DNA of 64,000 bases, from assembly GCF_963921235.1 (NCBI RefSeq), contig NC_086108.1, positions 38,132,001 to 38,196,000 on the forward strand, in the 5' to 3' direction. The position numbers and the translations under genes were made by a program. Position 1 is the stretch's first letter, and each line of letters opens with the position of its first letter. Under the pieces are notes generated by a model, which ran no database searches, was not told the DNA's origin, and saw only the letters and a program-made list of their open reading frames with translations. Of the stretch, positions 3,201 to 64,000 are shown one piece after another. This DNA comes from Mobula hypostoma (Eukaryota).

Positions 3201-3961
3201 AACTGTCAAAGTATCATCATGTTTACGGATCTTAGTAATTTAATGCTTAACCGAAGTAGTTTTCAATTGATTAGCTAATAATTTACCCGATTTATCACTA
3301 TGAATATAAAACTCACTTCTAGTTTTCATTAATTGATTTTCGATCGAGGATGTTAATAGTAAACTATGTTCAATTTGGAGTTCAACTCTCTGTTTATAAA
3401 GCTCCTTACTAGGAGCAATAGCATATTTTTTATCAATTCTTTAATTTTATCAACCAGCAAAAGTATTTCATTCTTAATACGTTTTTTTCAAACCAACAGA
3501 ATAGGAAATAATCTATCCACGAATATAAGCTTTAAAAGCATCCCATACTGTTGCATTGGAAATTTCTTCCATAATACTAGTTGAAAAGAAGAAATCAATC
3601 TGTTCCTTCATAAACTTAACAAAGTCCAAGTCTTGAAGCAAATTAAAATTAAATCGCCATTGTTCATTAGTAGAAGAAGTATCCATTAACTTAATAGAAA
3701 GCTTCATTGGAGAATGATCCGAAATGGCGATAATGTCATAATTGCAATCAATTACAGATGGAATTAAATGAGAGTCAACAAAAAAGTAGTCAATTCGAGA
3801 ATAAGAATGATAAACATGTGAAAAGGATGAAAACTCTTTGTCCTTTGGGTGTAGAAATCTCCAAATTTCTGAAATCCCAGAATCAGTCATAAAAGAGCTG
3901 ATAAGAGCAGCCGACTTATTCAGTAGAGCCGGTCTACATATGGATCTATCCAACATGGGAT
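228..3961 (-). mobile_element. L1-clade LINE, 5'-truncated inside the endonuclease domain, ORF2 broken by frameshifts
   Basis: Ordered ORF2 pieces: APE endonuclease (RIDYFFVD, SDHSP; 3513-3956), RT (APGPDGFTVEF, SYRLISPLNVDSK, AEKAFD, LYADD near 2305), C-terminal CDRC..H..WSC knuckle (731-1300). AATAAA and A-rich tail at 228-250; degenerate 18-bp TSD at 210-227 / 3962-3979 (14/18). Confidence 0.93.
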
Positions 3962-4708
3962 AACTCGAGCTAAGACTTCATGTGAGTTTCTTTTCTAACA
4001 GTGGCCTTCTCTTTGCCACTCTCCCATAAAGCTGCGACTGATGAAGCACCCGGGAAACAGTTGTTGCATGTGCAGTCTCTCCCAACTCAGCCACTGAAGC
4101 TTGTAATTCCTCCAAAATTTTTCATTGGTCTCTTGATGGCCCCCTAACCTGTTTCCTTCTTGCACAGTCTCTCAGTTTTTGAGGATGGCCTGCTCTAGGC
4201 AGATCTACTGCTATGCCATATTCTTTCCATGTCTTGATGACTTACTTAATTATACTACAAGGGATATTTAGTGACTTAGAAATTTTCTTATATCCATCTC
4301 CTGACTTGTGCTTTTCAATAGCCCTGTCGTGGAATTGCTTGAAGTGTTCTTTTGTCTTCATGGTATAGATTTTGCCAGGATACTGACTCACCAGCAGTTG
4401 GAGCTTCCAGGTACAGGTGTATTTTTACTACAATCAATTGAAACATGTTGATTGCACAAACCGATCTCCATCTAAATAATTATGTGACTTTTGAAAGTAA
4501 CTGGCTGCACTAGTGATGATTTGGAGTGTCATATTTAAGGGGAGTGAACCTCAATTCAGATCAATGTGTAGAGATCGGTTTTCACTTTGACATGAAGGAG
4601 TCTTTTTCTGTTGATTTGTGTTAAAAAAGCCAAAATAAATCTACTGTGGTTCAATGTTGTAAAACAATAAAAAATGAAAACTTACAAAGGGGGGTGAATA
4701 TTTTATAG
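3962..4708 (-). mobile_element. Tc1-like transposon, right-hand fragment including terminal repeat
   Basis: Continues the sequence broken at 227; ends in Tc1-type terminus 'aaaggggggtgaatattttatag'. Confidence 0.7.
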
Positions 4709-4714
4709 TAAAGA

Positions 4715-5265
4715 TTAATACTCTTCTTTGTCCAAAGGAATATTGTGTTCAAAACACTGGTGGACTAATAGATAAGGAGTGACCATTAAAATATCTAATT
4801 GTTTTAAGGATAAACTCGACACTGCTGAATACGGGGCACAGTTTGTGATTGAAGAAAGACAGGCTCTTTTGAGGCAAAAGATCAAAGAGTTGGTCTGTTT
4901 CTGGGTCCCTCTGAACTTGTGGATCTTGTATAAATGAATGAAATTTTCCATCCATTCTTTGGATTTTGCCCAGACTGGGATCGCAATCAGTGCCTGGGAC
5001 CCAGGGATAGTTTCACTAGCAAGTCAGAATTCAGAGTTACATCAGCAACAACAACAATCAAGTGGTGACGAAGAATCATGAGCCCTGAAATCTATGTGGA
5101 AATTTTTATGACTTGCTATGTGGTATTTTTGTGTGTATTATCTATGCTATGTATTTTATGACAATAAATTAAGCCTAAGTTACTTTGTTGTGATTGTACA
5201 TTTATTAACATATCATCTGGACACTCGAAATGTTGGGTTTGACTAATCCAGCCATTTCTGTTCGA
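4715..5265 (+). repeat. Old LTR-like dispersed repeat, copy 1
   Basis: Colinear similarity to 29750-30250 (e.g. aacaatcaagtggtg..aagaat.atgagccctgaaa); TATAAA at 4929 and AATAAA at 5163. Confidence 0.55.
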
Positions 5266-5274
5266 ATACACACA

Positions 5275-6065
5275 AGAGGCAGGATAGGGAAGGTGTAGTC
5301 AAAGTAGCTGTGTCGGTGGGTTCATAAAAATGTCAGTGGCAATTCTCTCCTGAGATGGAGATAGAGTGATCTGGAAAAGAAAAAGAAGTGTCAGATTCAG
5401 TTCAGGAGAATTTGATGCCAAATAGGCTGGAAGTCAGTGGTGAAAGTGATGAAACCGATGTGTTCTGCATGTGAATACAGGAAGCATCACAATGGATTTG
5501 TTGATGTAGTGGAGAAAGAGTGTGTGGGATGGTGGAATAAGCTTAGAACTTTTTCTCATGTAGTAATAAAAAGACAGGTGCAGTTCGACCTTGTGAGAAC
5601 CCTTTGATCTGTATTAAAAGTGAAGTTGTTGAGGGCAAGGACAAGTTCTGCTAAGTAGATGAGAGATTTTTTTGAGGAAAATCGGTTGTGTCTTTGTTTA
5701 AGAAAGAAATACAGACCTTTCTAATGTGGAATGGAGGTGTACGAAGACTGGATATCCATGGCAAAGGATGAACCAGTTGGAATAAGGAAATTGTAAATTA
5801 TTGAAATGGTGGTAGCCATGAGGGAAATCCTGGATACAAGTGGGAATAGACTGGGCAAGGAAGGAAGTTGAGATATGAAGAATCGAGTTTAGTGAGGCAA
5901 GAGCAGGTGGAAATAGTGGGCTTTCTAGGGCAGCCCTGTTTATACATCTGGAGTAGAAGATAATTGGTCATATGGGGGTTAGATCACTTTGAGATTTGAG
6001 GCTGCAGAGGGGAGATCTCCTGATCTCTTGAGAATAGTAATGATCTGGGAGACAGTGGTCTATTG
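5275..6065 (-). mobile_element. Decayed Penelope-like reverse transcriptase fragment
   Basis: Minus-strand translation gives FAMDIQSSYTSIPH, LAELVLALNNFTF, LFLHYINKS (decayed RYIDD) and a TDIF..PTD..YFDYT-like motif in Penelope RT order. Confidence 0.75.
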
Positions 6066-7903: not shown

Positions 7904-8800
7904 TGTTACGCACCCCGTAACTGGATTGCCAAACCAGCAGAAATGGACCACTCAATTGGAGTCTGGATTACTGGAACTAAGAAAGTTTTATTAAAGAAAT
8001 AAGAAACACAGTACTCTAATAGTAAGGACATAAATGCAACAGGTTAGCAATGAATAAACACATATGTACACAGAACTAGGATAATAGGATCAATCAAGCT
8101 CTATCGCAGTCTAGGGGTAAATGACCAGTTTCAAGTGACGCAAAGTTCAGTTCAGTTCGCAGTAATCACTGTTGTGCCATTGGGCGGGGAAAAGGAGAGA
8201 GAGCGAAAGCGAATGAATACTCAAAACGGATTCCACACAGACCTTTGATATTCCTCACAGTTAGCTTTCGGGCGAGTCCTTGGTAATGTCTTCTGAGGTC
8301 ACCGACTGTGACCCCTCCGTTCCAGACACGATCGTTCTTCAGCGGTGAACCCAGCTCCCAGGCAAGTGCGGACACACACCAGGTTCCCACCGACCGTATC
8401 TTTCCACCCTGTGCGTCTATGTCTGGTCCCGCGACCAGACCTCCAAAGACTCCCACCGACTTGTGGGGGCGCACCGCTTCCAGGGTCTCGTTACCTCGTG
8501 GTGTCGTGTGTGTCTTAGCGAACCTGCCCCTTTTTATCCCCCTGCTGGGGTATTGCCTGTCCATCACACTTCAAACAGTTCAGGGTTCAAAAGGAGCCGG
8601 TCTTGACAATACTCAGACCGGTGTCTCCTTCCGTTAAACTCTCTCGTCTCTTCATTAACATTTCCAAATGCTGCTCCATTGTCTTACTTATCTCTCTCTC
8701 CTGAAGACAGGTGGCAGATCAACTGTTGATCCCACTGGTGTTAGCACAGGACAGCTAACATCTTAGTCTATGTGTACTTTTGTAACCCTCTTTCGTCACA
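7904..8800 (-). repeat. 3' LTR of Gmr1-like element (897 bp)
   Basis: tgttacg...cgtcaca; about 96-97% identical by eye to 13658-14569, plus one 15-bp indel. Confidence 0.97.
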
Positions 8801-8812
8801 CCCCTCCCCTTT
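8801..8812 (-). promoter_or_regulatory. Polypurine tract of Gmr1-like element
   Basis: Minus-strand AAAGGGGAGGGG directly abuts TGTGACG of the 3' LTR. Confidence 0.9.
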
Positions 8813-13657: not shown

Positions 13658-14569
13658 TGTTACGTACCCTGTAACTGGGTTGCCAAACCAGCAGAAATGG
13701 ACCACTCAGTTGGAGTCTGGATTACTGGAACTAAGAAAGTTTTATTAAAGAAATAAGAAACACAATACTCTAATAGTAAGGATATAAATGCAACAGGTTA
13801 GCAATGAATAAACACACATGTACACAGAACTAGGATAATAGGATCAATCAAGCTCTATCACAGTCTAGGGGTAAATGACCAGTTTCAAGTGACGCAAAGT
13901 TCAGTTCAATTGAGTTCAGTGCAGTTCACAGTAATCACTGTTGTGCCGTTGGGTGGGGAAAAGGAGAGAGAGCGAAAGTGAATGAATATTCAAAACGGAT
14001 TCCACACAGACCTTCGATATTCCTTGCAGTTAGCTTTCGGGCGAGTCCTTGGTAATGTCTTCTGAGGTCACTGACTGTGACCCCTCCGTTCCAGACACGA
14101 TCATTCTTAAGTGGTGAAACCAGCACCCAGGCAAGTGCGGACACACACCAGGTTCCCACCGACCGTATCTTTCCACCCTGTGCGTCTATGTCTGGTCTCG
14201 CGACCAGACCTCCAAACACTCCCACCGACTTGTGGGGGCGCACCGCTTCCAGGGTCTCGTTACCTCGTGGTGTCGTGTGTGCCTTAGCGAATCTGCCCTT
14301 TTTTATCCCCCTGCTGGGGTATCGCCTGTCCATCACACTTCAAACAGTTCAGGGTTCAAAAGGAGCCGGTCTTGACAATACTCAGACCGGTGTCTCCTTC
14401 CGTTAAACTCTCTCGTCTCTTCATTAACATTTCCAAATGCTGCTCCATTGTCTTACTTATCTCTCTCTCCTGAAGACAGGTGGCAGATCAACTGTTGATC
14501 CCACTGGTGCTAGCACAGGACAGTTAACATCTTAGTCTATGTGTACTTTTGTAACCCTCTTTCGTCACA
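13658..14569 (-). repeat. 5' LTR of Gmr1-like element (912 bp)
   Basis: Direct repeat of 7904-8800; followed on the minus strand by the PBS. Confidence 0.97.
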
Positions 14570-14959
14570 CCATATATCAATGCAGCTATAAAGAGGACAA
14601 TACAGTGGTTATATTTGATCCGGAGTTTGAGGAGATTTGATATGTCACCTAAAACACTCACAAATTTCTACAAATATACAGTAGAGAGCATTCTGACAGG
14701 ATGCATTACTGTCTGGTATGGAGCGGGTGGGGAGGGTGTACTGCCCAGGATCGAAGTGAGCTGCAGAGAGTTGTAAAATTAGTCAGCTCCATCATGGGCA
14801 GCAGCCTCCAAAGTATCCAAGACATCTTCAAAGAACAGCGTCTTAAAAAGGCAGCATCAATCATTAAGGGCCCTCACCTCCCAGGACATGCCCCTTTTTC
14901 ATTGTTACCATCAGGAAGGAGTTAAAAAAGTATGATGACACACTCTCAACATTTTAATT

Positions 14960-27725: not shown

Positions 27726-27871
27726 CAGTATCATGTTTACTTTTCAACCACTGCACTTTCGTTGATTATTACAACTATATGGACTAGTGCTAAATAATAA
27801 CAGCCTTTGCAACACACATCAAAGTTGCTGGTGAACGCAGCAGGCCAAGCAGCATCTATAGGAAGAGGCGC

Positions 27872-27907
27872 AGTCGACGTTTCAGGCCGAGACCCTTCGT
27901 CAGGACT
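27872..27907 (-). ncRNA. Minimal hammerhead ribozyme motif (Penelope type)
   Basis: AGTC-CTGACGA-AGGGTCTCGGCCT-GAAA-CGTC-GACT: stem I AGTC/GACT, core CUGANGA and GAAA, palindromic ACGU stem III, GUC site. Confidence 0.75.
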
Positions 27908-28200
27908 AACTGAAGGAAGAGTGAGTAAGGGATTTGAAAGCTGGAGGGGGAGGGGGAGATGCAAAATGATAGGAGAAGACAGGGGGGGGAGGGATAGAGC
28001 CGAGAGCTGGACAGGTGATAGGCAAAAGGGGATACGAGAGGATCATGGGACAGGAGGTCCGGGAAGAAAGACGGGGGGGGGGTGACCCAGAGGATGGGCA
28101 AGAGGTATATTCAGAGGGACAGAGGGAGAAAAAGGAGAGTGAGAGAAAGAATGTGTGCATAAAAATGAGTAACAGATGGGGTACGAGGGGGAGGTGGGGC

Positions 28201-28527
28201 CTAGCGGAAGTTAGAGAAGTCAATGTTCATGCCATCAGGTTGGAGGCTACCCAGACAGAATATAAGGTGTTGTTCCTCCAACCTGAGTGTGGCTTCCCCT
28301 TTACAGTAGAGGAGGCCGTGGATAGACATGTCAGAATGGGAATGGGATGTGGAATTAAAATGTGTGGCCACTGGGAGATCCTGCTTTCTCTGGTGGACAG
28401 AGCGTAGATGTTCAGCAAAGCGGTCTCCCAGTCTGCGTCGGGTCTCACCAATATATAAAAGGCCACATCGGGAGCACCGGACGCAGTATATCACCCCAGT
28501 CGACTCACAGGTGAAGTGATGCCTCAC
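28201..28527 (-). pseudogene. Penelope GIY-YIG endonuclease domain (C-terminal fragment of the element ORF)
   Basis: FTCESTGVIYCVRCSRCGLLYIGETRRRLGDRFAEH...HFN...GMN. Confidence 0.9.
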
Positions 28528-28872
28528 CTGGAAGGACTGTTTGGGGCCCTGAATGGTGGTATGGGAGGAAGTGTAAGGGCATGTGTAGCACTTGTTCCGC
28601 TTACACGGATAAGTGCCAGGAGGGAGATCAGTGGGGAGGGATGGGGGGGACGAATGGACAAGGGAGTTGTGTAGGGAGCGATCCCTGCGGAATGCAGAGA
28701 GAGGGGGGGAGGGAAAGATGTGCTTAGTGGTGGGATCCCGTTGGAGGTGGCGGAAGTTACGGCACCTGTCCAGCTCTCGGCTCTATCCCTCCCCCTCCTG
28801 TCTTCTCCTATCATTTTGCATCTCCCCCTCCCCCTCCAGCTTTCAAATCCCTTACTCACTCTTCCTTCAGTT

Positions 28873-28908
28873 AGTCCTGACGAAGGATCTCGGCCTGAAA
28901 CGTCGACT
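28873..28908 (+). ncRNA. Minimal hammerhead ribozyme motif (Penelope type), inverted arm copy
   Basis: AGTC-CTGACGA-AGGATCTCGGCCT-GAAA-CGTC-GACT. Confidence 0.72.
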
Positions 28909-29749
28909 GCGCCTCTTCCTATAGATGCTGCTTGGCCTGCTGCGTTCACCAGCAACTTTGATGTGTGTTGCTTGAATTTCCAGCATCTGCAGAATTCCTG
29001 TTGTTTGCGTTTAAAATAACAGCCTTTGGTTTATTTTTATGTTTTATAATACACTCTGAATAGCAAAATGGCACATTGTTTAGGGGCACTAAAGTAAAAC
29101 ATGTTCATGAGATAATTAGGCCCTATAAATGAAATGTTTTCAATATCTCTTTGAAAGCACTTCACTCACTGATGTATTTCAATAAACTGAAAGGCCTATA
29201 TTTTGATTTGCCTCTGTAGTAACTGACACCATTATGATACTAGTGTTCGCTTTGCATTATTGTATTAATTCTTAATGAATCACAATACTTAAATGCATTT
29301 ACTGATAGAACCCAATTCCCTAGGATATTGCCTATGAAGGGGTTAAGTTTATCTGTAACATGTAATATAAAATGGATAGATGTAGTTTGAAAACACCAGC
29401 AGAGCACTTGTTACCACTTTACTCTAACTGTTGCAATCTCAGCAGGAGACTCGTGGGGACAGTGAGATGTCACTTTCCATATGCAAAATAGGTTCTCATT
29501 ATCAATAACCAAGCTTAAATTGGAAGATACTCTGTCAGATATTGAACCATATTAAATTTTGTATAATTGAGTGAATGTCTATGAGGTCAATGACAATTTA
29601 AGACTTTCTGAACTTTTGGCTTGTGGGGTCTCTGGAGTCAACAACGAGTAACCATTAAAATGCAAATATCTGTTAGTGAGTAAGTATTGAAAATGTCTGT
29701 CAAGTGGTTTGTCTGTCCAGACTCTGGCTTATTGTTTATATATGTAAGC

Positions 29750-30976: not shown

Positions 30977-31420
30977 GCAACACACACATCAAAGTTGCTG
31001 GTGAACGCAGCAGGCCAGGCAGCATCTCTAGGAAGAGGTACAGTCGACGTTTCAGGCTGAGACCCTTCGTCAGGACTAACTGAAGGAAGAGTTAGTAAGA
31101 GATTTGGAAGTGGGAGGGGGAGGGGGAGATCCAAAATGATAGGAGAAGACAGGAGGGGGAGGGATGGAGCCAAGAGCTGGACAGGTGATTGGCAAAGGGG
31201 ATATGAGAGGATCATGGGCCAGGAGGTCCAGGGAGAAAGACAAGGGGGGGGGGGAACCAGAGGATGGGCAAAGTGTATAGTCAGAGGGACAGAGGGAGAA
31301 AAAAGAGAGTGAGAGAAAGAACGTGTGTATAAAAATAAATAACGGATGGGGTACGAGGGGGAGGTGGGGCATAGGCGGAAGTTAGAGAAGTCAATGTTCA
31401 TGCCATCAGGTTGGAGGCTA
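30977..31420 (-). mobile_element. Penelope-like element 3' fragment
   Basis: About 90% similar by eye to 27810-28250; includes the GMNIDFSNFR ORF end. Confidence 0.9.
31042..31077 (-). ncRNA. Minimal hammerhead ribozyme motif (Penelope type)
   Basis: AGTC-CTGACGA-AGGGTCTCAGCCT-GAAA-CGTC-GACT. Confidence 0.72.
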
Positions 31421-38667: not shown

Positions 38668-38859
38668 ATGGTGACAAGTAAGTTTTAAAATGACTACCTA
38701 CCTGTTCAAGTTCAGCACGTTTTTTGACTTTGCAAGGGAGAGAGAGAACGTCAAGTTAAAAATAAAAGTGAAGCACATATTTTTTACTTTGGAAGGGCAG
38801 TGAGATGTTTGAGTTAAAAAAAAGCCAGAAAATGAATTAAATTCATGGGTTCATAAATA

Positions 38860-39341
38860 CGAGGGGTGATTGATAAGTTCATGGCCTAAGATAAAAGGAG
38901 TCAATTATAGAAAACCTAGCACATTTATTTTTCCTACATTTACACACTTAGTCCAGCAGTCGTGGAGCATACAGACCCCTTCTTTGTAGAAGTCGGCGTC
39001 TTGGATCTCCAGAAGTGGTCCACAGCAGAGGTGATTGATAAGTTTGTGGCCTAAGGTAGAAGGAGATGAGTTACTAACTTCCTTCTGCATTTTCACCCAA
39101 AGAGTTGACCCGCACGTGCATATAGTGAGAGCTGTATGACTCGTCTTCTTCTACCTTAGGCCACAAACGTATCAATCACCCCTGCTGTGGACCACTTCTA
39201 CAAAGAAGGGATCCGTATGCTCCATGACCGCTGGACTAAGTGTGTACATGTAGGAGGGGACCATGTTGAAAAATAAATGTGCTAGGTTTTCTAAAATTGA
39301 CTCCTTCTACCTTAGGCCATGAACTTATCAATCACCCCACG
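38860..39341. mobile_element. Mariner-derived MITE with nested terminal repeats
   Basis: TA-cgaggggtgattgataagtt...aacttatcaatcaccccacg-TA; carries transposase C-terminal remnant FYKEG.RMLHDRWTKCV..GGD.VEK*. Confidence 0.85.
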
Positions 39342-39386
39342 TAGTGAGTACCAGGTGATCATTTTAATAACTAAATAACACAGAAA

Positions 39387-42500: not shown

Positions 42501-43458
42501 AAAAGGCTTGGCAGAAAAGTTTGCCCAGAGTGTAAAGAATACACTGCAGAGCACATTACATTAATACTGAATCCGAAGCTCACCAGTTTCCTCCTTGCTG
42601 CACACTTTACAACAACTCACCAGCAATGCCGTTCCTGGGTTGTCCCTTCTGCACATGCTTAGATCTCCTCAAATCCAATCTCAGAGTGAGTATGCAGGAC
42701 AAACAACTGAGATGAACTGAGAGCTCCTCAGACAAAGAGGTTCCATATTTCACTCCTGGACAAGCAGTCCCAGCTAGGGAATACAAGAGGTGATCAAAGG
42801 TGGGCACTTGGAAAGATTAAGAACAGAACTGGGTCACTCTCCCGCACAGTGGAGATTACATATGATATTATCTGGAAATGACATACTGATCATTTGAGGA
42901 GAGCAGAGTCAATTGTTAGAGAAGAAAGGTGTTCAGAGCTGTCAGAACCACCTCAAGCAATCCCAGTGTCAACTCCTACAACCATCAAGGCAGAGGCCCA
43001 GAGCTTGAAAGTGTTTTACAGGCACAGGTCTCAGTTGCCAAGCAGAGTAATCCCCCTTGTCAGGAAAGACATTATCCTACAAGTGTAAAAAATCTATAGA
43101 TCCTTAGGGACAATCTAAAATTTCCAATGTATTGGATGTCTACATTATAGTTGCCTATTGCCTATATATATATATTGTGTGTGTGTGTGACGATCTGGGT
43201 GGGGGTGTGGTCCACAGCCTGCCCCTGCATTTCTAACAACCAGTACTGTTTACTGTTCTTGTGTTAAAATGCTTTTGTGGGATTATGGTGGGAAGTTCCA
43301 GTTCATTTATTGCTACAATTTAGCTTGGGTTATACAGTTATTCATCTGTGTATTTGTGGATCACCCTGACTGTAACCGGGGTGTGTGATGGTCACCTCCC
43401 CCGTCTGTGTGAGACTGGTTGGGTACATTCTTCGGGTCATGGTGTCCGGTCTGTTTCT

Positions 43459-46400
43459 TGACACCTTCGCGCTGCTGACGGGCACCATTGCCTACGTGCA
43501 GGACAGGGGGCTGGACACCTGCCCAGTCAGCTTGGACCAGGAGAAAGCCTTCGACGGGATATCATACATGTACAGTTGAAGTCAGAAGTTTACATACGTT
43601 TAGCCAAATATATTTAAACTCAGTTTTTCACAATTCCTGACATTTAATCCTAGAAAACATTCCCTGTCTTAGGTCAGTTAGGATCACTACTTTATTTTAA
43701 AAATGTGAAATGTCAGAATAATAGTAGAGAGAATGATTTATTTCAGCTTTTATTTCTTTCATCACTTTCCTAGTGGCTCAGAAGTTTACATACACTCTGT
43801 TAGTATTTGGCAGCATTGCCTTCAAATTGTTTAACTTGGGTCAAACATTTTGGATAGCCTTCCACAAGCTTCTCACAGTAAGTTGTTGGAATTTTGTTCC
43901 ATTCCTCCAGAATTCCTCCAGACGGAACTGTTGTAACTGAGTCAGGTTTGTAGGCCTTCTTGCTCACACATGCTTTTTCAGTTCTGCCCACAAATTTTCT
44001 ATCGGATTGAGGTCAGGGCTTTGGAATGGCCACTCCAATACCATGACTTTGTTGTCCACAACTTTGGAAGTATGCTTGGGGACATTGTCCATTTGGGAGA
44101 CCCATTCACCACCGAGCTTTAACCTCCTGGCTGATGTCTTGAGATGTTGCTTCAATATATCCACATAATTTTCCTTCCTCATGATGCCATCTATTTTGTG
44201 AAGTGTACCAGTCCCTCCTGCAGCAAAGCATCCTCACAACATGATGCTGCCACCCCCATGCTTCACGGTTGGGATGGTGTTCTTCAGCTTCCAAGCCTCA
44301 CCCTTTTTCCTCCAAACATAACAATGGTCATTCTGGCCAAACAGTTCAATTTTTGTTTCATCAGACTAGAGGACATTTCTCCAAAAAGTAAAATCTTTGT
44401 CCCCATGTGCACTTGCAAACTGTAGTCTGGCTTTTTAGTGTGGTTTTTGAGCAGTGGCTTCTTCCTTGCTGAGCAGCCTTTCAGGTTATGTCGATACAGG
44501 ACTCGTTTTACAGTGGATATAGATACACGTCTACCTGTTTCCTCCAGCATCTTCCCAAGGTCCTTTGCTGTTGTTCTGGAATTGATTTGCACTTTTTGCG
44601 CCAAAGTACATTCATCCCTAGGAGACAGAATGTGTCTCTTTCTTGAGCGGTATGACAGCTGCGTGGTCCCATGGTGTTTATACTTGCATACTATTGTTTT
44701 TACATATGAACGTGGTACCCTCAGGCGTTTGGAAATTGCTCCCAAGGATGAACCAGACTTGACATCATTTTCTGACCTCAATCTGATAGAAAGTTTGTGG
44801 GTAGAACTGAAAAAGCATGTGCGAGCAAGGAGGCCTACAAACCTGACTCAGTCACACTAGTTCTGCCTGGAGGAATGGAACAAAATTCCAGCAACTTACT
44901 GTGAGAAGCTTGTGGAAGGCTACCCAAAACGTTTGACCCAAGTTAAACAATTTAAAGGCAATGTTACCAAATACTAACAAAGTGTATGTAAACTTCTGAC
45001 CCACTGGGAAAGTGATAAAAGAAATAAAAGCTGAAATAAATCATTCTCTCTACTATTATTATGACATTTCACATTCTTAAAATAAAGTAGTGATCCTAAC
45101 TGACCTAAGACAGGGAATGTTTTCTAGGATTAAATGTCAGGAATTGTGAAAAACTGAGTTTAAATGTATTTGGCTAAGGTGTAGGTAAACTTCTGACTTC
45201 AACTGTACATGGCAGACGTACTCTCCAAAATGGGATTTGGGGAGGGAATCAGGAATTGGATCAAACTGCTCTACACAGACATCTGTAGTGCAGTCCAAGT
45301 CAACGGGTGGGAAACAGATAGTTTCCCCATCAAGCCTGGAGTCAAACAGGGCTGCCCTCTCTCCCCTGTCTTGTTCGTGTGCTGCATACAGCCCTTTGCC
45401 GAAGCCATCAGCAGGGATGAGGGCATAAGTGGGGTGACGCTGCCAGGCAGTGGAGGGACCCAAGTGAAAACCTCCCTGTACATGGACGACGTCACCATCT
45501 TCTGCTCTGATCCGAGGTCAGTTCACAGGCTGATTGGCATCTGCGACCAGTTTGAGCTGGTGTCGGGGGCCAGAGCCAACCACACGAAGAGTGAAGCCAT
45601 GCTCTTCGGCAACTGGCCGACCGATCCAGTGTCTCTTTCACCATCAGGTCTGATCACGTGAAGGTGTTGGGGATCTAGTTCAGAGGGGCCGAGGCATGCA
45701 ATAAGAACTGGCTGGAGCAGATTGCCAAGGTAAAACAGAAACTGGTCGCTCCCTATCGATAACGGGCAAGAACCTGGTCATCAAATGTGAGGTGCTCTCA
45801 GGGCTGCTGTACTTGGTGCAAGTGTGGCCCGTCCCCCACTCCTGCAGCTCGGAAATCACCTGACCCGTCTTTAGATTTGTCTGGGGATCCAAGATGGAGT
45901 GGGTCAGACGGGCTACCATGCACAAGTCCCTGGACAATGGGGGCAAAAATGTTCCCAATGTCCCCCTCATCCTGATGGCCAGCTTCATGTGTAGCTGCAT
46001 CAGGTTGTGTGTAGAACCCAGGTACGTGAGCACCAAGTACTACTATGTGCCCAGGTTCTACTTGTCGCCCTGGCTACGAAGGATGGGTCTGGCCCCATTT
46101 CCGCGCAACGCCCCAGTCAGCTGGTCGTTGCCACACTACCTGCCCTTTGTGGAGGAGTTCTTCCAGGACAGCACCTTTGACCACAGGACCATCAGGCAGT
46201 GGTCGACACAGAATGTCCTGCAGACACTGCAGAAGAACGTGATGGACACAGTGGGTTGGGTTCCTTGAGCAGACCGTCCAGTTCACCGGGCAAAATGCCT
46301 CATCGCCAGACCTCACCAACAGGAACAAAACCTTGCCAGTTTGGCAGTGAGAGGGGCCCTCCCAGTCAGATCCCTCCTGTATGCCCAGAACATCGTCTCC

Positions 46401-48860: not shown

Positions 48861-51128
48861 TATGGCTTCTTAGCAAACAATGTTAACTTCTTTCTTTCGT
48901 AAACAAGCTGAGGAGTGTAACAAGAATAAATTACAAGAGACTGATAACAGTAAAAGTGTTTTGCCTGCTTCTAGTTCAAATTTTCTAACTGGGTCCAAAT
49001 GCAGTTCTGAAAGTAATGGTCCTTCGAAGTCAGGCTTGTATCCCTGTTCAGATGTTTGAACTGAAGAAATGTGGAAGAAAAAGAAGGAAACTTATCCGTA
49101 GTTAGACTTCAAGGATGATACACTTGAAGTATGTAAAGTATGTGCAACTGCAAACAAAAGCAAATTGACACGTTTCACTTCTAAGGGTTTGAGGCTGTCA
49201 GATGAATGGCAGATGTACCAAGTATCCTATTCTGGAGCCGATCGAAGTACATGCTTGAAGTCTCTCAGAAAAAAAATTGTTGATCACTAACTATCAAAAG
49301 CTCATACTGTTGCTCTAAGTGTTGAAAATATAACTAGTGAAGGTGCTCTTGGAAAATTATGTGACACCATGAATGCTTCGCATCTAAAGGCAACTTGTTC
49401 AATTTTTCGTTCTGCATATTGTTTAGCTCAGAATGACAGACCATACTCTGATCACTTTGGCTTATTGGAACTTCAAAAAAATAATGGTATTGACATTGGA
49501 ATTGGACTGCATTCCCACACTAGTGCTGCAGACATAATTAATCACATAGCCATTAACATGAAAAAGAAAATTTGCCAGCATATCAAGAGGGTAAATGGCA
49601 AATTTCCGCTCTCATTGATGAATCAACAAGCCTGAGCATTAAGACTGTCCTAATAGTTTATTTGAAATGTGAAAGTTATAAGGAAGATGATCCCCATTTT
49701 ATGTTTTTAGATCTAATTGAACTGCCTGATCAGAAAGCTGCAACTATTGCTAAGCATCTATTGAACAGTCCCAATAACTATGGGTTTGATGACTCTTACT
49801 TGAAACAGAACCTTGTAGCATTTGCTAGTGATGGGGCGAGCGTAATGTTTGGTGTCAAATCTGGTGTTGCTACAAATCTCAAGGAACATTACCCTGATGT
49901 GTTAATTTGACACTGTCTTAATCACAGATTAGAACTTGCAGTAGGTGATTCAGTGAGAGAAGTTGTTGCTTGTTTAGGTAATTTCTCCAAACTTCCCCTT
50001 TTCAACTGCCTCTTGAGCTTCTAGAGTTCAATCATTTATGAACAAATTGTACTCTGTTTACAGTAGATCACCTTAAATCAAAAGGAACTGTCTGAATGTG
50101 CCTCTCATCTAGAACGACAAATTTGCAAAATAGGCCGTGTTCTGGGCACCAGGTGGGTAGCTAGCTCATTTCGAACAGTTTCAGCAGTGTGGCAAAATTA
50201 TGAAGCACTGTATTTTCATTTTGAAAAAGCAATGAAGGATGAAACAAGATCTGGGAGTGACAGAAAAACCTATGAAGGTCGGTCGAAAAGACTCGCTTCA
50301 GAACAGTTTCTAATGGACTTAGCTCTAATGTATGACACGTTGCATGAACTTGGTTTACTGTCAGAGTGTTTACAGAAACGCACTACTACGATTGTTTATG
50401 CTGACAAACTGATCAAACGGAGCATAAGATCACTGCATGGACTGAAAGAGCAACCTGGTACAAAAACTCTAGAAGCTCAAGAGGCAGTTGAAAAGGGGAA
50501 GGTTGGAGAAATTACCTAAACAAGCAACAACAAAATTGTCTCTATTAATTATCTACAGTTTCCTACTAGTCTTATAAACAATTTGCAGCACCGTATGTTC
50601 ACAGCAACATCCTTGAAAGGTTCTCAAACTTCTAAACCTCAAAGTATGTATGAATCCCTGCTAAATGAAATGTGTGTCCTTGTTAAAGATAACTGGCCTG
50701 CTGAAATACCACATAATTATGGAGAAGCTGCAATATCATCTCTCCGTAAGAGGTTTAAGCTTTCTTCTTCCTCTGTAAAAAATGCCTTCAGAGATTATGT
50801 GGAGGATTGTGGACGCCACATCCCCCAAGATTTACACCCATTACTGAGCTGTTCACAAGTTATTCCTATTAGTACTGCTGAGCATGAGAAAGGATTCAGT
50901 TACATGAACTTCATGATAATAACAACAACACGCTCAAGGATTCTCATAGATCATGTATCAGCACTTATGTTTATTAAACTACATGGACTTCCTCTAGTTC
51001 AGTGGAATCCTGAGCTGTATGTCACATCATGGCTGCGGTACCACAGATCAGCAGATGACACCAAGACAAGGGTTGCTTCAGACCCCAGAACACATATTAC
51101 GCCTGGCCCTTTGTGGAAATTATTGTGA
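48861..51128 (+). pseudogene. hAT transposase pseudogene (KIAA1586/ZNF862-like)
   Basis: LIDESTS, ASDGASVM, HCLNHRLEL, TRWVASS, IPISTAEHEKGFS motifs in order, with stops and frameshifts. Confidence 0.85.
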
Positions 51129-51362: not shown

Positions 51363-51364
51363 TA

Positions 51365-51560
51365 CCAGAGGTGATTGATAAGTTCATGGCCTTAGGTAGA
51401 AGGAGTCAATTTTTGAAAACCTAGCAATTTTCAATTATCTGAAACAGAAATACCACAGAAGTTATTAACTTCAAACTTTCTGCATAATCTGAGTTGAACT
51501 ACACTTGCATGTAACAAGAGCTGTATAACCTTAGGCCACGAACTTATCAATCACCCCTCG
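51365..51560. mobile_element. Short mariner-derived MITE, same family as 38860-39341
   Basis: gaggtgattgataagttcatggcc ... ggccacgaacttatcaatcacccctcg, TA flanks. Confidence 0.8.
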
Positions 51561-53688
51561 TACAACTCTGGAGTCTGGCACCTAAAAGATTGGCACTGCA
51601 CCCCTGCATATAGGAGTAAATTTGGGAGCGCTTACAGCAGATCTCCGCCACTGTGCTCGGCGTGGCTACCCGAGTCCCCTCCCGCGGCCCAGGAAAAGCT
51701 TGCCCTCTATGCCTTTGTAAAGGCGCTGATGCCAGAGCACCTTCAGCAGCACGTTTGCCTGACGTCGCCGTCATCGCTGGCCGAGGCAGAGAGAGCAGAA
51801 GCGATCTTAGCCCCCCATCGCCCCGCATGCAGCGAACCCGGGCTCATCTCACCGAGGTGGAGGAGGAAACTGACAAGGAGGAGCCCGTGACACAGGTCCA
51901 GCCAGCGCCGCGCCGACCCCACCAGCGGCCACGAAACGACCTCTGCTACCGGTGCGGTGAGGCAGGTCATTTGGCCCGGGACTGCCCCGCACCGGCACCA
52001 CGCCACAGCTCAGCGCAGCCATCGGGAAACGCCGAGTGGGCAGCACCGCCCGAATCCTCCAGCAGAATCCCTCCATTGTCGGGCCCCTCCGGGTGGGCCA
52101 TTTGTGGGAGGAGCAAAGCTTATACGTGGACTGCATGGTGGAGGAAATCAGATGCCTTGCATTGGTGGACACAGGGTCAACCATCACTATCATCCGTCCT
52201 GGTGTTCTCCCGAACACGGACCAGCCATCCCCGCCTGGGTGGACAATGATGGCGGTCCAACTGGCGATGGTCACCAGTGACTGCGGCGATGCGAGGGAAG
52301 AGGAGGCTGCACATCGCAGTGGACAGAAACGCAGCGGAGCACAAGGTGTGGCTGGCCGACATCCGAGAGTCCTGCATCCTTGGCCTGGACCCGCTGTCCC
52401 GCTGGGGGGCCTGCGAGGACGTGTCGGGGGCAACACTCTCCCTCGGTGACAAAGCCGTGGCTCTCCAACTGGGCAGCTCCAGGAAACGGTCCCAGAAGGA
52501 GCGGCAACCACCATGGGTTTCAAAGCTTCCCGTGACAGTGCAGCACACCTGGCGGCGGCCACATGCCATACAGTTGAGCCGCAGGCAAACGACACTGACG
52601 GCGCTTCGAGTGACATCCAGCTATGACCTCCCCACCGTGGAGCAGCAGCTGTGCAGAGAAAAGGTAAGTGATCCCGTGCCGCCCGGGTGAGGGAATGGCT
52701 GAGTGTGGGACGAAGGCCGGAGTGGGCAGAGGTCTCTGCCCTGGACCCATACTCGCCGTGGGGCACACTGGAGGTCCACGACGGGTTGCTGTTCAGGCAG
52801 TGGCAGTTGTCCGATGGTGACAGACTCTTGCAGCTGGTGGTCCCCCGGGGGCTCCACGCCACGGTTCTGCGGTTGGTGCACAGGCTGGTGGGGGCCGGCC
52901 ATCTCGGAGCTGCAAAGACGTTGGGCAGGCTGCATGAACGCTTCTATTGTCCTGGGTACAGGCAGGACGTGGAGATGATGGTGCACGGCTGCGTAGCTTT
53001 CACGTCCCAGAAGGGACTGGGCCGCCAGTCTGGGGTGCCAATCCAGCAGTACATGGTGGGGGCCCCAGTAAGTGTCTACTGCCCCTCCTGGAAAACGGAC
53101 TATTCCCCCCCAGGCTGGGAGGCACTGGAGGGGGCTAGGAGAGGAGCTCAACCGCATCTCTGATATGGTATATCGGGTGCGGTTGCCTGAGCGACAGAAG
53201 TCACTGTCGACCCACTGTCGACTGTCGACATGCACTGGGACCGGCTTGGCACCGTTTCAGCCCTTGGCCACCACTACCCCAGCGAGGCTGAAGGAAGGAA
53301 GTGACACTCTGGGTGCCCTGCCTCTTGCATTGCAAAATCAGGTGGCAGTGTCCACGTCCGCTGGAACTTTTGGACCTTGCTACGGACTCTGGGGCCACCG
53401 GGGACAGCTGACCCCTCAGGTGGGGACGGTGTGACGTTCCGGGTGGGGGCGTGGTCGACAGCCTGCCTCTGCAGTTCTAACGACCAGCACTGTTTGCTGT
53501 TCTTGTGTTAAAATGTTTTACTGGGATTATGGTGGGAAGTTCCAGTTCGTTTATTGTTACATTTTAGCTTGGGTTATACAGTTATTTGCTTGTGTACTTG
53601 TGGGTCACCCTGACTGTAACTGGGGTGTGTGATGGTCACCTCCCCCATCTGTATGAGACTGGTTGGGTTCACTCTTCGAGTCATGGTA

Positions 53689-55448: not shown

Positions 55449-55683
55449 AGTGCAGTGTAATTAATATTTGAGTAATATTGTAAATTTTTGTTTGATTAGC
55501 ATTATTGTTTATATAATTCATTGTGGGTTATACGTAAAAGTACGTGAATGGCATATGTCATTATGCCACTACGTCATCAGAGTGCACCTCACTAAAAGTA
55601 AAAACTGAACCTAGGACACATTATCCTCAGCTCCATGTTTTTCTTTCAATTAATTTTATGTTTTGGATTTACAAAACATAACT
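55449..55683 (+). repeat. LTR similar to 38418-38667 (probable 3' LTR of old Gypsy)
   Basis: Shared ggttata.gtaaaagta.gtgaatggcata, cctcacta.aagt.aaaa, tttttctttc.att.atttta.gtttt. Confidence 0.72.
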
Positions 55684-60036: not shown

Positions 60037-61826
60037 ATTGTACTAGGGAACTATATAATTGTTTTATTGCTTTGGATAGAAGCTATCTTTATGTCTGATG
60101 GTACATGCTTTCAGATTTTTCTATCTTCTTCCCATTGGGAGAGTGGAGAATAGAGAATATCTGGGGGCGGTTGGAGGCTTTCATTATGATTACTGCTGAA
60201 CTGAGGCAGCGTAAAGTATAGATCACGGAGAGAAGGCTGGTTTTGTGATGTGCAGAACTGTGTTATCATCTCTCTACAGTATCTCATGGTCACAGGTAGA
60301 GCAGTTGCCATATCAAACTATGATATCTCCAGATAGGCTGCTTTACATAGTGCCTTGGTAAAAATTAGTAAAGATCGACTAGGACATGCCAATTGTCTTC
60401 AGCCTGCTGAGGATGTACTGTAGAAGCATATGTAATCTCTCTTGACTATGGCATTGATGCATCTAGATCCGTACAGAACCAATGATAGCTGCTTTCAATA
60501 TTAGATTGTTCAATGTCTGTGGAGCTGGAGATGTGAATGAGTTGGATACAGTTTCCTGTGGTCTTTATACTCCAGTTTTAAAAAGCAAGTAAGGCCCTTC
60601 GGGATGTTCTGCAGAGTGGAAAATTGCTTGCGATAATAGTAACTTAGTAATGGCCAATAAAAAGAAGATAAGTTTAAGCAGAGCACCCGTTATTGGGGTG
60701 GCAATTGCTTGAGTGGACAGTGTTAGAGTGGTCAGGCTTTCGTTCAGCTAGCTTGGGTGAGAACTGGCAGAGGCTAGAACATAAGCTTGAGAAGTTAGAG
60801 GTTTAATAAGTGTAGGCAGGTGTCATCCGGAGGGCGTTGAAGGCGGACCCAAATGCAAGACACAGACACTGAAGTACTGGGAACTGGACTGGACACAGAC
60901 TAGGAGCTGGGACAGGAACACAGACTTAGGCTAGGAAAGCAGGACAGGACGAGGAACTGGAAACTAGGAGCCTGGGTTTGGACTCCGAGCCAGAGACTGG
61001 ACAAGGACCCAGTACCTGGGTCTTGACTCGGGCTCGGACCCCGGAACTAGGCGAGGACATGGCGTGGCTACAGGTCTGGACATGGCTTGGGTTCTTCAAG
61101 GCTTGGCTACTGGACTAGATGAGGCTTGGGTTCTTCGAGGTTTGGCTGCAGGACTAGACGAGGTTTGGGTTCTTCGAGGCTTGGCTGCAGGACTAGATGA
61201 GACTAGGGTATGAACAGGGACGGGGCAAGGACCCAGAACCTGGGTTTTGACTCGGCCTTGGACTCCGGAACTAAGCGAAGACATGACGTGGCTACTGAAC
61301 TAGATGAGGCTTGGATTCTTTGAGGCTTTCCTGGGCAGGACGAGGAACTCCTTCTTGGGACACAGGGCCAGGACCCTTCCTTGGACGCCGGGCCGGAATG
61401 CCTACTAGGATGCGAGACCAGGATGACTGCCGAGGTAAACCGCCGAGGAAACTGTCAGGGATTCAGATGGAGAGGAGAAGGAAACAGACCAGCCTCAGGG
61501 TAACAGCAAAGATGGCATGACTTACCCAACAGAGGCGAGGACAGGAAGGGACAGATCCAACCGTAGGGTAACGGCAAGGACGGCCTGACTTACCCCCACG
61601 GAGGCAAGGACAGGAAAGGACAGATCCAACCACAAGGTAATAGTAAAAACAGCCTGACTTACCCCACAAAGGCAAGAACAGGAAGGGAGCACAATCTGGG
61701 GTGGCTCCAATTTTCGGGGCAGCCAGCAACCTTGGCTGGTTACGGAAACAGCCAAATCCATGTCTAGCTCGGAGTGGCAGACGGCCACTCAGCTGGCCTC
61801 AGAAACGACCGAATCCATACCATGAT

Positions 61827-62032
61827 CAAAGTTGCTGGTGAACGCAGCAGGCCAGGCAGCATCTGTAGGAAGAGGTGCAGTCGACGTTTCAGGCCGAGAC
61901 CCTTCATCAGGACCCCCTGGCCTGAAACGTCGACTGCACCTCTTCCTACAGATGCTGCCTGGCCTGCTGCGTTCACCAGCAACTTTGATGTGTGTTGCTT
62001 GAATTTCCAGCATCTGCAGAATTCCTGTTGTT
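61827..62032. mobile_element. 206-bp Penelope-derived palindromic insertion
   Basis: Perfect 71-bp arms 61825-61895 / 61919-61989; 13-bp TSD tccataccatgat (61814-61826 / 62033-62045). Confidence 0.92.
61879..61914 (-). ncRNA. Minimal hammerhead ribozyme motif (Penelope type)
   Basis: GGTC-CTGATGA-AGGGTCTCGGCCT-GAAA-CGTC-GACT. Confidence 0.65.
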
Positions 62033-64000
62033 TCCATACCATGATGACTGCTCCGACTAGAGACAACAAGGCTCCATGAAGCGGCGGTCCTCCAACCAGG
62101 TCTAGAGATCACAAATGGCTGCTCTAGCATTTCACCGGTGGGTTGCTCGAAGGGGATACTGACAAGTTGAACCAGCACCCACACTCGATCCCAGGGCCAC
62201 TTATATTCCCAGCCCAAGGACGAGCATCAGGTGCCTATGATTAAGCCCAATGGAAACAAGGGACAGCCGGAAAACCCGGAGTCCACGGACCGCACCGTGA
62301 ACCGAAATGCCTTCTTCACGGACCAGACCATGACAGCAGGATGGTAGTTCAGACAATAGAATGCTCCTCCTGTGAGATGTTGGATTTCAGGTTACCTAAT
62401 GGTCTTTCTAATGATGTCATCTGCAGGAGTACTCCTGATTGACCGGGACAAGGAACTCTAGCTGGAGCTAGACGCACTGAGGACAACCCGAATGGCTGAA
62501 AACTTCATAGATGAGGCTTTATTGAGGTGGTCACACCCAAAGTGCAGGCTTCAGATAGTAAATGGGTGACTGCAAGGAGAAGTACGGGGAGTAGGCAGTC
62601 TGTGCAGGGTTCTCCATGGCCATTCCCCTCAGCAACAAGTATACCCCTTTGGATTCTGCTGGGGGGGAGCGTCGACCTATCAAGGCACAACAACAGCACT
62701 GTGCAACTCGTGGCACTGTGGTCAGCTCTGAGGATCAACAGGGAGGGGTAAAGATAGGCAGGTAGTGACAGGAGACTTGGTAAGTTAGGAGGATGGACAG
62801 CAGAATCTGTGTTCAGCAGAAGAGAAGACAGGATGGTATGTTGCCTCCCAGTTGCTGGAGTCCAGGATGTCTCAGAGCAATTGCAAAAGATTCTCAAGAG
62901 GGAAGATAAAGCCAGAGGTTGTGCTGATATTGGCACAAATGACATAGGTAGAAAGGAGGAAGAATCCTACGTAATGAGTATAGGAAGTTAGGAATGAGGC
63001 TGAGGAGCAGGAATAGAATGATGATACAGGTGAATGAGTGCCTGAGAAGCTGGTGCAGGGGGTAAGGTTTCAGATTTCTGGATCATTGGGATCCCTTCTA
63101 AGGAAGGTAAGACCTGTACAAAATGGATGGGTTACACCTGAACCCCAGGGGGAGCGACATTCTTGCAGGTTTGCTAGAGTTGTTGGGGAGGATTTAAACT
63201 AAGTTTGAAGGGGGATTGGAACTGGAGTGACAGGGCTGAGGATGGGACACTTGATATACAAGTCAATGCAATGTGTAGTGAGACTGTGAGGAAAAACAAG
63301 TAAATGATAGGGCACAATTGCAGTCAGTGGGTTGAGTTGAAGTGTAACATCAAAGAAAAATGAAAAGGGCTATGAATACAGCACTGAAGGTTTTATATTT
63401 GAATGTATGCAGTCTTAGGAATAAGGTAAATGATCTTGTAGCACAGTTAGAGTTGGCAGGAATGATGCTGTGAGCATCACAGAGTCGTGGCAAAAAGAAG
63501 GTCATAGTTGATAGCTTAATGTCCAAGGATACATGTATTGAAAGTACAGGCAGGTGTGGAGAGGGGGTGGTGTGGCTCTGTTGATAAACAACAAATCAAA
63601 TTCTTAGAACAAGGTGACATAGGATCATAAGACGTAGAATCCTGAAAGGTAGAGTTAAGAAATGGCAAGGGTAAAAAGACCCTGATTATACAGCCTTCCA
63701 AACAGCCAGCAGGATGTGAGATATAAATTTCAATGAGAAATAAAAACGACATGTAATAAGGGCAATGTTACAATAATCATGGGGCAGTTCAATATGCAGG
63801 TAGATTCGGAAAATCTGGTTAAAGCTGGATCCCAACAGAGGGAAGTTGTAGAATGCCTATGAGATGGCTTGTTGTTGAGTCCATGAGGGGAAAGGCAATT
63901 CTAGATCAGATGTTGTGTAATGAACCAGATTAGATTAGGGAGCTTAAGGCAAAGGAACCCTTAAGAAGCAGTGGTCATATCATGGAATTCACCCTGCAAT

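Follow-up and report, generated by a model that had tools for sequence, protein, structure and literature searches.

A transposon with two right ends

The Tc1-like unit at 43573-45205 of the window (the whole 64,000-nucleotide stretch of ray DNA that was analysed) is a precisely resolved right-right derivative of a transposon of the Sleeping Beauty (SB) family. Its native 3' end is arm B. At the other terminus, where the left end belongs, lies arm A, which repeats the element's final 434 nt in inverted orientation (Table 1). This anatomy is real, and partial evidence from contigs makes it likely that the element was mobile in its right-right form. The preferred reading, which is considered probable, is that the unit derives from a right-right founder of the SB/Tss1 family that arose by template switching while the family was active and was then mobilised in trans.

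The unit combines a TA duplication with terminal inverted repeats, as do Tc1/mariner elements, and it falls in the IR/DR subgroup by having two DRs in each end of roughly 225 bp, with an outer-inner spacing of about 197 bp in both arms. A DNA identity of 90-93% to two reference elements (L001 and L003), together with matches to SB structures, places it in the SB/Tss1 subfamily; it departs from the canonical form of that subfamily, which has a distinct left IR/DR with a half-DR enhancer, in that both arms are right-type. The two arms are 91.5% identical over 445 columns. Short length (<1 kb) and internal deletion, the marks of a MITE, are not seen: the unit has native length, and when its own four indels are counted back it measures 1,639 bp, the length of L001 and L003. 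The limits that the initial annotation gave for the unit, the arms and the flanking TA dinucleotides proved exact. No second copy of the family was found within the 64-kb window.

Table 1. Coordinates of the transposon, its parts and its insertion site in the window.
Feature	Position	Strand	Remarks
Interrupted non-LTR retroelement RT frame, upstream part	43376-43572	+	left limit approximate
TA target-site duplication, left copy	43571-43572	none	
Non-autonomous SB/Tss1-family Tc1 unit, whole	43573-45205	-	1,633 bp
Arm B, native 3' end	43573-44016	-	right IR/DR (43573-43796) and last transposase codons
Arm B, outer DR	43573-43604		
Arm B, inner DR	43770-43801	-	
Arm B, tandem duplication	43901-43922		11 bp
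SB-like transposase remnant, dead	43800-44761	-	codons 19/20-340
Junction	44760-44774	-	15 nt, exact match to reference 5' UTR 261-275
Junction, part shared with coding sequence	44760-44761		2 nt
Junction, UTR-only part	44762-44771		10 nt
Junction, part shared with arm A	44772-44774		3 nt
Arm A, final 434 nt repeated in inverted orientation in the left end's place	44772-45205	+	right IR/DR (44981-45205) and codons about 274-340
Arm A, inner DR	44976-45007	+	
Arm A, outer DR	45174-45205		right-type
TA target-site duplication, right copy	45206-45207	none	
Interrupted RT frame, downstream part	45208-45661	+	RVT_1, E 9.6e-16

Asymmetry of the family's ends

The two references are distinct full-length elements of 1,639 bp that were obtained by a terminal-motif scan of metagenome contigs; neither comes from the host, and the comparison of left ends is thus made against non-host elements. 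L001 (L001:1613-3251) is a natural-looking full-length element with TA on both sides and an uninterrupted 340-aa ORF, the product of which is 92.6% identical to a Salmo trutta protein. The unit in the window is 90.6% identical to it at the DNA level over 1,206 columns.

Within L001 and L003 themselves, the left and right IR/DRs are about 68% alike in a gap-rich alignment. This divergence rules out symmetric family ends, so the asymmetry that the initial annotation had assumed is borne out and the objection it foresaw, that full-length members might have identical ends, falls away. Its claim of two right ends stands as well: when the last 434 nt of L001 and of L003 are reverse-complemented, arm A matches them at 93.1% and 92.9% identity, respectively, compared with 68.7% for the left IR/DR, and both window arms match the right end at 91-93%. 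Positions 44774-44974 of arm A match aa 274-340 of the reference transposase (tblastn). Both reference left ends contain a half-DR-like motif at position 154, with 10 of the 12 DR-core letters, whereas neither the window arms nor the reference right ends contain anything closer than 7 of 12. The motif is presumably the published SB enhancer HDR, which is located in the left IR according to the accessible part of PMC5224488.

The junction

Between arm A and the transposase remnant lie 15 nt that match a segment of the element's own 5' UTR exactly, a match with a chance probability of about 6e-6 (0.007 for the inner 10-mer alone). The sequence had been described as an 11-bp filler; the exact match rules out an untemplated origin. 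Because the UTR segment is bounded by the microhomologies CAG and CA, the junction looks like the product of template switching, with one switch from the arm to the 5' UTR and a second from the UTR to codon 19-20. The new 5' sequence (44762-45205) measures 444 nt and takes the place of exactly 444 nt of the reference, preserving the native length of 1,639 bp; this agreement, noticed after the fact, may reflect a single in-register event or chance. There is no TA in the 18 nt around the junction, which therefore does not appear to be a scar of integration or autointegration. An 8-nt word is common to the junction and reference position 420, but it is present in L001 and not in L003 and was given no weight.

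The same junction could have come from two young copies lying head to head or nested, if two deletions, one at the 3-nt and one at the 2-nt microhomology, joined the right 434 nt of one copy to the 5' UTR and coding sequence of its partner, and the outer right ends later transposed as a pair. Such a hybrid origin, which would itself require right-right transposition by way of a different birth, is consistent with arms that have no private changes in common, as expected of two separate copies, and the available text of PMC3952818 describes bimolecular use of ends by piggyBac and, as a rare event, of left ends by SB. It is nevertheless quite improbable, since it needs an adjacent insertion as well as two deletions, no TA lies in the 18 nt concerned, and the exact conservation of length would be chance.

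The transposase remnant

The remnant of the transposase is dead. Measured against an intact ORF of 340 aa, it has no ATG of its own and no in-frame ATG upstream, and it is broken by a 1-bp frameshift near 44440, a stop at 44234-44236 and a 15-bp deletion at 44057/44058. On the minus strand it begins with KSGSSL at 44760, which corresponds to position 20 of the HTH_SB profile, and coding homology resumes at the last base of codon 19, in agreement with the abrupt start and the loss of about 19 N-terminal codons that were recognised at the outset. A chimeric transposase at the junction was ruled out, as no in-frame ATG occurs upstream before a stop. The Pfam domains HTH_SB, HTH_Tnp_Tc3_2 and DDE_3 give the remnant the paired-like HTH and DDE make-up of its class, and it matches the solved structures of the SB PAI and RED domains (5UNK, E 4.7e-24). 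All three acidic motifs are present; the spacing from D to E is 29 residues by reason of the 15-bp deletion and 34 with the reference spacing. The deletion is absent from 7-8 family contigs in each of three of the four runs examined below.

Insertion site

With the unit and one TA removed, a retroelement reads through in an open frame (...KAFDGISYM-YMADVLSKMG...). The initial annotation had reported this restored frame (GISYM-YMADV) as that of a host Tx1 element; the frame was found as described, and what was confirmed behind the Tx1 label is a non-LTR-type RT domain, carried by the downstream part. The upstream part alone (43376-43572) gave no Pfam match. The TA is likewise duplicated on both sides as reported, but the perfect palindrome catgTAcatg, described as its site, is probably a result of CpG decay, because contigs of the host retroelement's family read ...CGCACAC directly before 45205 (17 contigs of X1 and 8 of X6), that is, cacgTAcatg. 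Co-copying of the palindrome with the arm and a special target mark were both rejected, the right half being native to the retroelement family and the left half corresponding to a CpG transition. Directly upstream of the interrupted retroelement fragment lies the first copy of a 259-bp repeat (43185-43443 and 53429-53687, 89.6% identical), the second copy of which comes after decayed frames resembling those of an LTR retrotransposon.

The target-site duplication and the restored frame do not prove mobility of the right-right form, because a left-right copy that was converted in place keeps both. Such a history would have a left-right element insert here and its left end soon be overwritten by the same template switch, for example during post-excision gap repair, so that the unit never moved in right-right form. 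It accounts no less well for the duplication, the templated junction and the restored frame, the replacement of 444 nt by 444 nt is what one local event might give, and the poor performance of right-only SB substrates recorded in the accessible part of PMC3952818 agrees with it. To the extent that the initial annotation drew its idea of mobilisation in trans from the clean insertion site, the idea does not follow from it; mobilisation is nonetheless likely, on suggestive evidence from the dating of mutations in the arms and from the contigs.

Age of the rearrangement

Contigs of four runs (two samples, organisms A and B) were aligned to 44020-45700 at 85% likeness, runs with a word share under 0.1 having been left out. 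The organisms hold at best 0.46 (A) and 0.34 (B) of the region's words, and neither is shown to be the host. The SB-type family is abundant in both, with 3,659-5,752 contigs aligned per run, and in each run 74-97 contigs depart from it at 45207 and continue into other flanks that start with TA.

The sites at which the arms differ from both references comprise 11 specific to arm A, 14 specific to arm B, 17 shared by the arms and 4 unclassed. Family contigs carry another letter in nearly 100% of cases at 9 of the 11 sites specific to arm A and at 0 of the 17 shared sites (Fisher p 8e-6), among the 40 differences listed, beyond which there are 66 further letter differences, so that absence from the lists is weak evidence. 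The 17 shared sites thus look like letters of the host family, and the arms look free of detectable common decay. Private changes number 11 in 434 positions of arm A, 14 in 433 of arm B and, among those listed, 24 in 703 of the interior; the arms combined (25/867) do not differ significantly from the interior (24/703, p 0.56). As no mutations private to this copy were detected in common between the arms, the data support, rather than establish, the view that each arm has decayed on its own over roughly the same time as the interior, and that the right-right form dates back as far as the insertion. Late conversion in place is accordingly unlikely and early conversion is possible, an early event being one that would likewise leave no private mutations in common.

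The arm-specific differences also bear on the suspicion that the unit is an artefact of assembly, in which a chimeric fold-back joined two repeats. The repeat is of high copy number (thousands of contigs per run), and among reads of the window's own sample none was seen to span the locus, as an artefact would allow. An artefact is scarcely credible, however, for arms that differ at 25 arm-specific sites and by indels, with flanks that both rejoin in frame, a junction whose template segment this copy otherwise lacks and a diverged contig that crosses the junction.

Related contigs

That contig, record 11 of X2 (276 nt, depth 54), aligns to 44517-44783 with 37 other letters and 0 gaps in 267 nt; beyond the junction, a normal element would agree at only 6 of 22 letters. 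With 37 differences it is too diverged to be this locus; its 23 letters beyond 44760 fall under the 31-letter rule for bridging, and it is one of 32 records listed, with 18,821 others. A second contig of X2 joins the interior at 44495 to 44773 on the same strand through 12 non-native letters, and so has the same inverted-arm layout and the same arm start. The two contigs support the presence of the junction in more than one copy, short of demonstrating it; no second complete right-right element with its own target-site duplication and flanks was seen among the contigs of the four runs. If the junction is present in many copies, any given copy is unlikely to be the founder, and conversion in place would leave unexplained the 14%-diverged contig across the junction, the second contig that begins an inverted arm, and the raised depth of the arm. 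On balance it is unlikely.

The coding part of the arm has 2.42, 3.23, 2.29 and 2.99 times the median depth of the interior in the four runs (1.4-2.5 times the interior maximum), and the bin at the junction 0.76, 1.04, 1.53 and 1.12 times that median, with no collapse; contig depth is not a copy number. In X1 the depth is 17,082 at 44793 and 27,729 at 44802, far below the 129,571 at 44853, so the step may sit inside the arm and stem from an internally deleted subfamily. No loose end was found at 44760/44761 among the 24 loose ends listed (with 1,445 others, and 63 joints beyond those listed), nor among the same loose ends at 44772, where one is expected under any model. A loose end of X6 at 44983 (organism B) joins the inner DR to about codon 3, with 28 of 30 letters equal to the reference, and is another deleted or rearranged derivative of the family in that organism. 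The native N-terminal codons that it carries are consistent with left-right relatives as a source of transposase.

Origin and mobilisation

In the preferred reading, the right-right form would have been born once, while the family was active, by template switching guided by microhomology during replication or gap repair. Synthesis starting at the left terminus may have jumped to the near-identical outer DR of the right end and copied 434 nt of that end inward; the 3-nt microhomology would then have led it into the 5' UTR for a stretch of 10 nt, and the 2-nt microhomology from there into codon 19-20. The product would have four DRs as transposase-binding sites in the usual outer and inner order, and would be without the left half-DR enhancer, the ATG and 19 codons. 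The transposase of intact left-right relatives could then have cut this unit and pasted it, in trans, into a TA of the retroelement. A further and tentative suggestion, on the doubtful side, is that the enhancer-less right-right form became the main amplified form of the SB family in the host lineage, having originated early, kept the native length and out-multiplied its left-right master. In that event, either the left-end enhancer is dispensable in the germ line or perfect arms of 434 nt offset its loss.

Other features of the window

The window contains several further mobile elements. Fragments of two other, more distant Tc1-like transposases lie at 3-229 and 3924-4358, with 46-63% and 30% aa identity, respectively, to the protein of L001. 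Direct repeats of ~900 bp (7904-8802 and 13658-14571, 95% identical) surround gag-, pol- and integrase-like frames and mark an LTR retrotransposon. At 27809-28971, 30982-31420 and 61825-62033, head-to-head inverted copies with 209-bp arms (99%) occur around a GIY-YIG-like frame (weak match, E 3e-4). A TA-flanked element of 486 bp at 38858-39343, which we take to be a mariner-type MITE, is an inverted repeat of itself throughout (74%), and ends related to it occur at about 51363-51430 and 55462-55681. Decayed frames at 49291-51125, with a 67-bp inverted pair (49962-50028 and 50465-50531), gave no Pfam match and presumably derive from a hAT-type transposase.

Significance

SB is in wide use for gene transfer. 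Laboratory work links its left-end enhancer, which probably aids synapsis, to efficient movement; SB constructs with two right ends reportedly move poorly. A natural right-right subfamily, if real, would amount to an experiment in the vertebrate germ line on the need for the enhancer, and would also test whether long perfect inverted arms can replace it. The junction records template switches at base level, and the unit extends end replacement from simple-TIR mariners, where 5' sequence replaces 3' sequence only, to the opposite direction and to an IR/DR element. Should the junction turn out to be unique, it would be a neat repair accident of a dead transposon and nothing out of the ordinary.

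Comparison with known systems

No natural right-right SB element was found in the literature searched; the form may already be catalogued in Repbase or Dfam, which lie outside that scope. The available text of PMC9777934 (Jia et al. 2022) describes no end replacement and its readable supplement does not contain the junction, the accessible parts of PMC4877112 (Bari) and PMC5490172 (aphid mariners) have internal deletions and no end replacement, and the accessible part of PMC6362248 reports no right-right copies. Natural plasmids gave no match to the element. Viral contigs held no relative by protein, terminal motif, junction or host-type arm motif, and prokaryote genomes contained neither the junction nor the arm motif; these negatives carry little weight, ray DNA not being expected there. 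A search for the junction peptide gave no candidate among proteins of 102-328 aa or 30-101 aa; among longer proteins there were 23 matches in 411 candidates, mostly teleost or unnamed proteins that need not have the junction N-terminus. As far as the available text of PMC9777934 goes, its survey records no SB-group elements in Chondrichthyes. The unit in the window is 90-93% identical in DNA to salmonid-type SB elements, yet its host is a ray, and it is a candidate for horizontal transfer.

With Sleeping Beauty and the salmonid Tss1, the unit shares an SB-type transposase, two DRs per end and TA duplication; it differs from them in lacking the left IR/DR, the half-DR and the start codon, in being dead, and in having 434-nt inverted arms that include coding sequence. 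In ray-finned fish, SB TIRs of 44-415 bp have been described, one 3' TIR partly overlapping the ORF (Jia et al. 2022, PMC9777934, accessible part), and such cases may be unrecognised rearrangements of the same kind.

A natural parallel is provided by the Drosophila mariner MITE sublineages Dromar7, 11, 28 and 36, in which an inverted copy of one end replaces the other, giving long TIRs in amplified, non-autonomous elements (Wallau et al. 2014, PMC4161770, accessible part). In all seven Drosophila mariner cases of that source, as far as its available text shows, the 3' part is replaced by the 5' part, whereas the present unit shows the reverse, with 3' sequence in place of the 5' part. Moreover, the Drosophila cases are simple-TIR mariners classed as MITEs of <1 kb, whereas the present unit is an IR/DR Tc1 element of full native length, with ends of a kind reported to be functionally unequal.

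Engineered same-end transposons (Mos1 RR, Mboumar-9 LL and SB LL, in the available descriptions) resemble the unit in having the same end on both sides of the cargo. Mos1 and Mboumar-9 perform best with their preferred end in duplicate, and a similar SB result is cited, in the accessible part of PMC4505599. In cell assays, SB without its left IR gave 0 transposase-mediated integrations out of 30, and without its right IR 5 out of 70 (PMC3952818, accessible part), counts that argue, in small numbers, against efficient right-right pairing. The engineered SB pair and the natural unit stand opposed in their choice of end: the SB enhancer sits in the left end, and it is the other, right end that the natural unit pairs.
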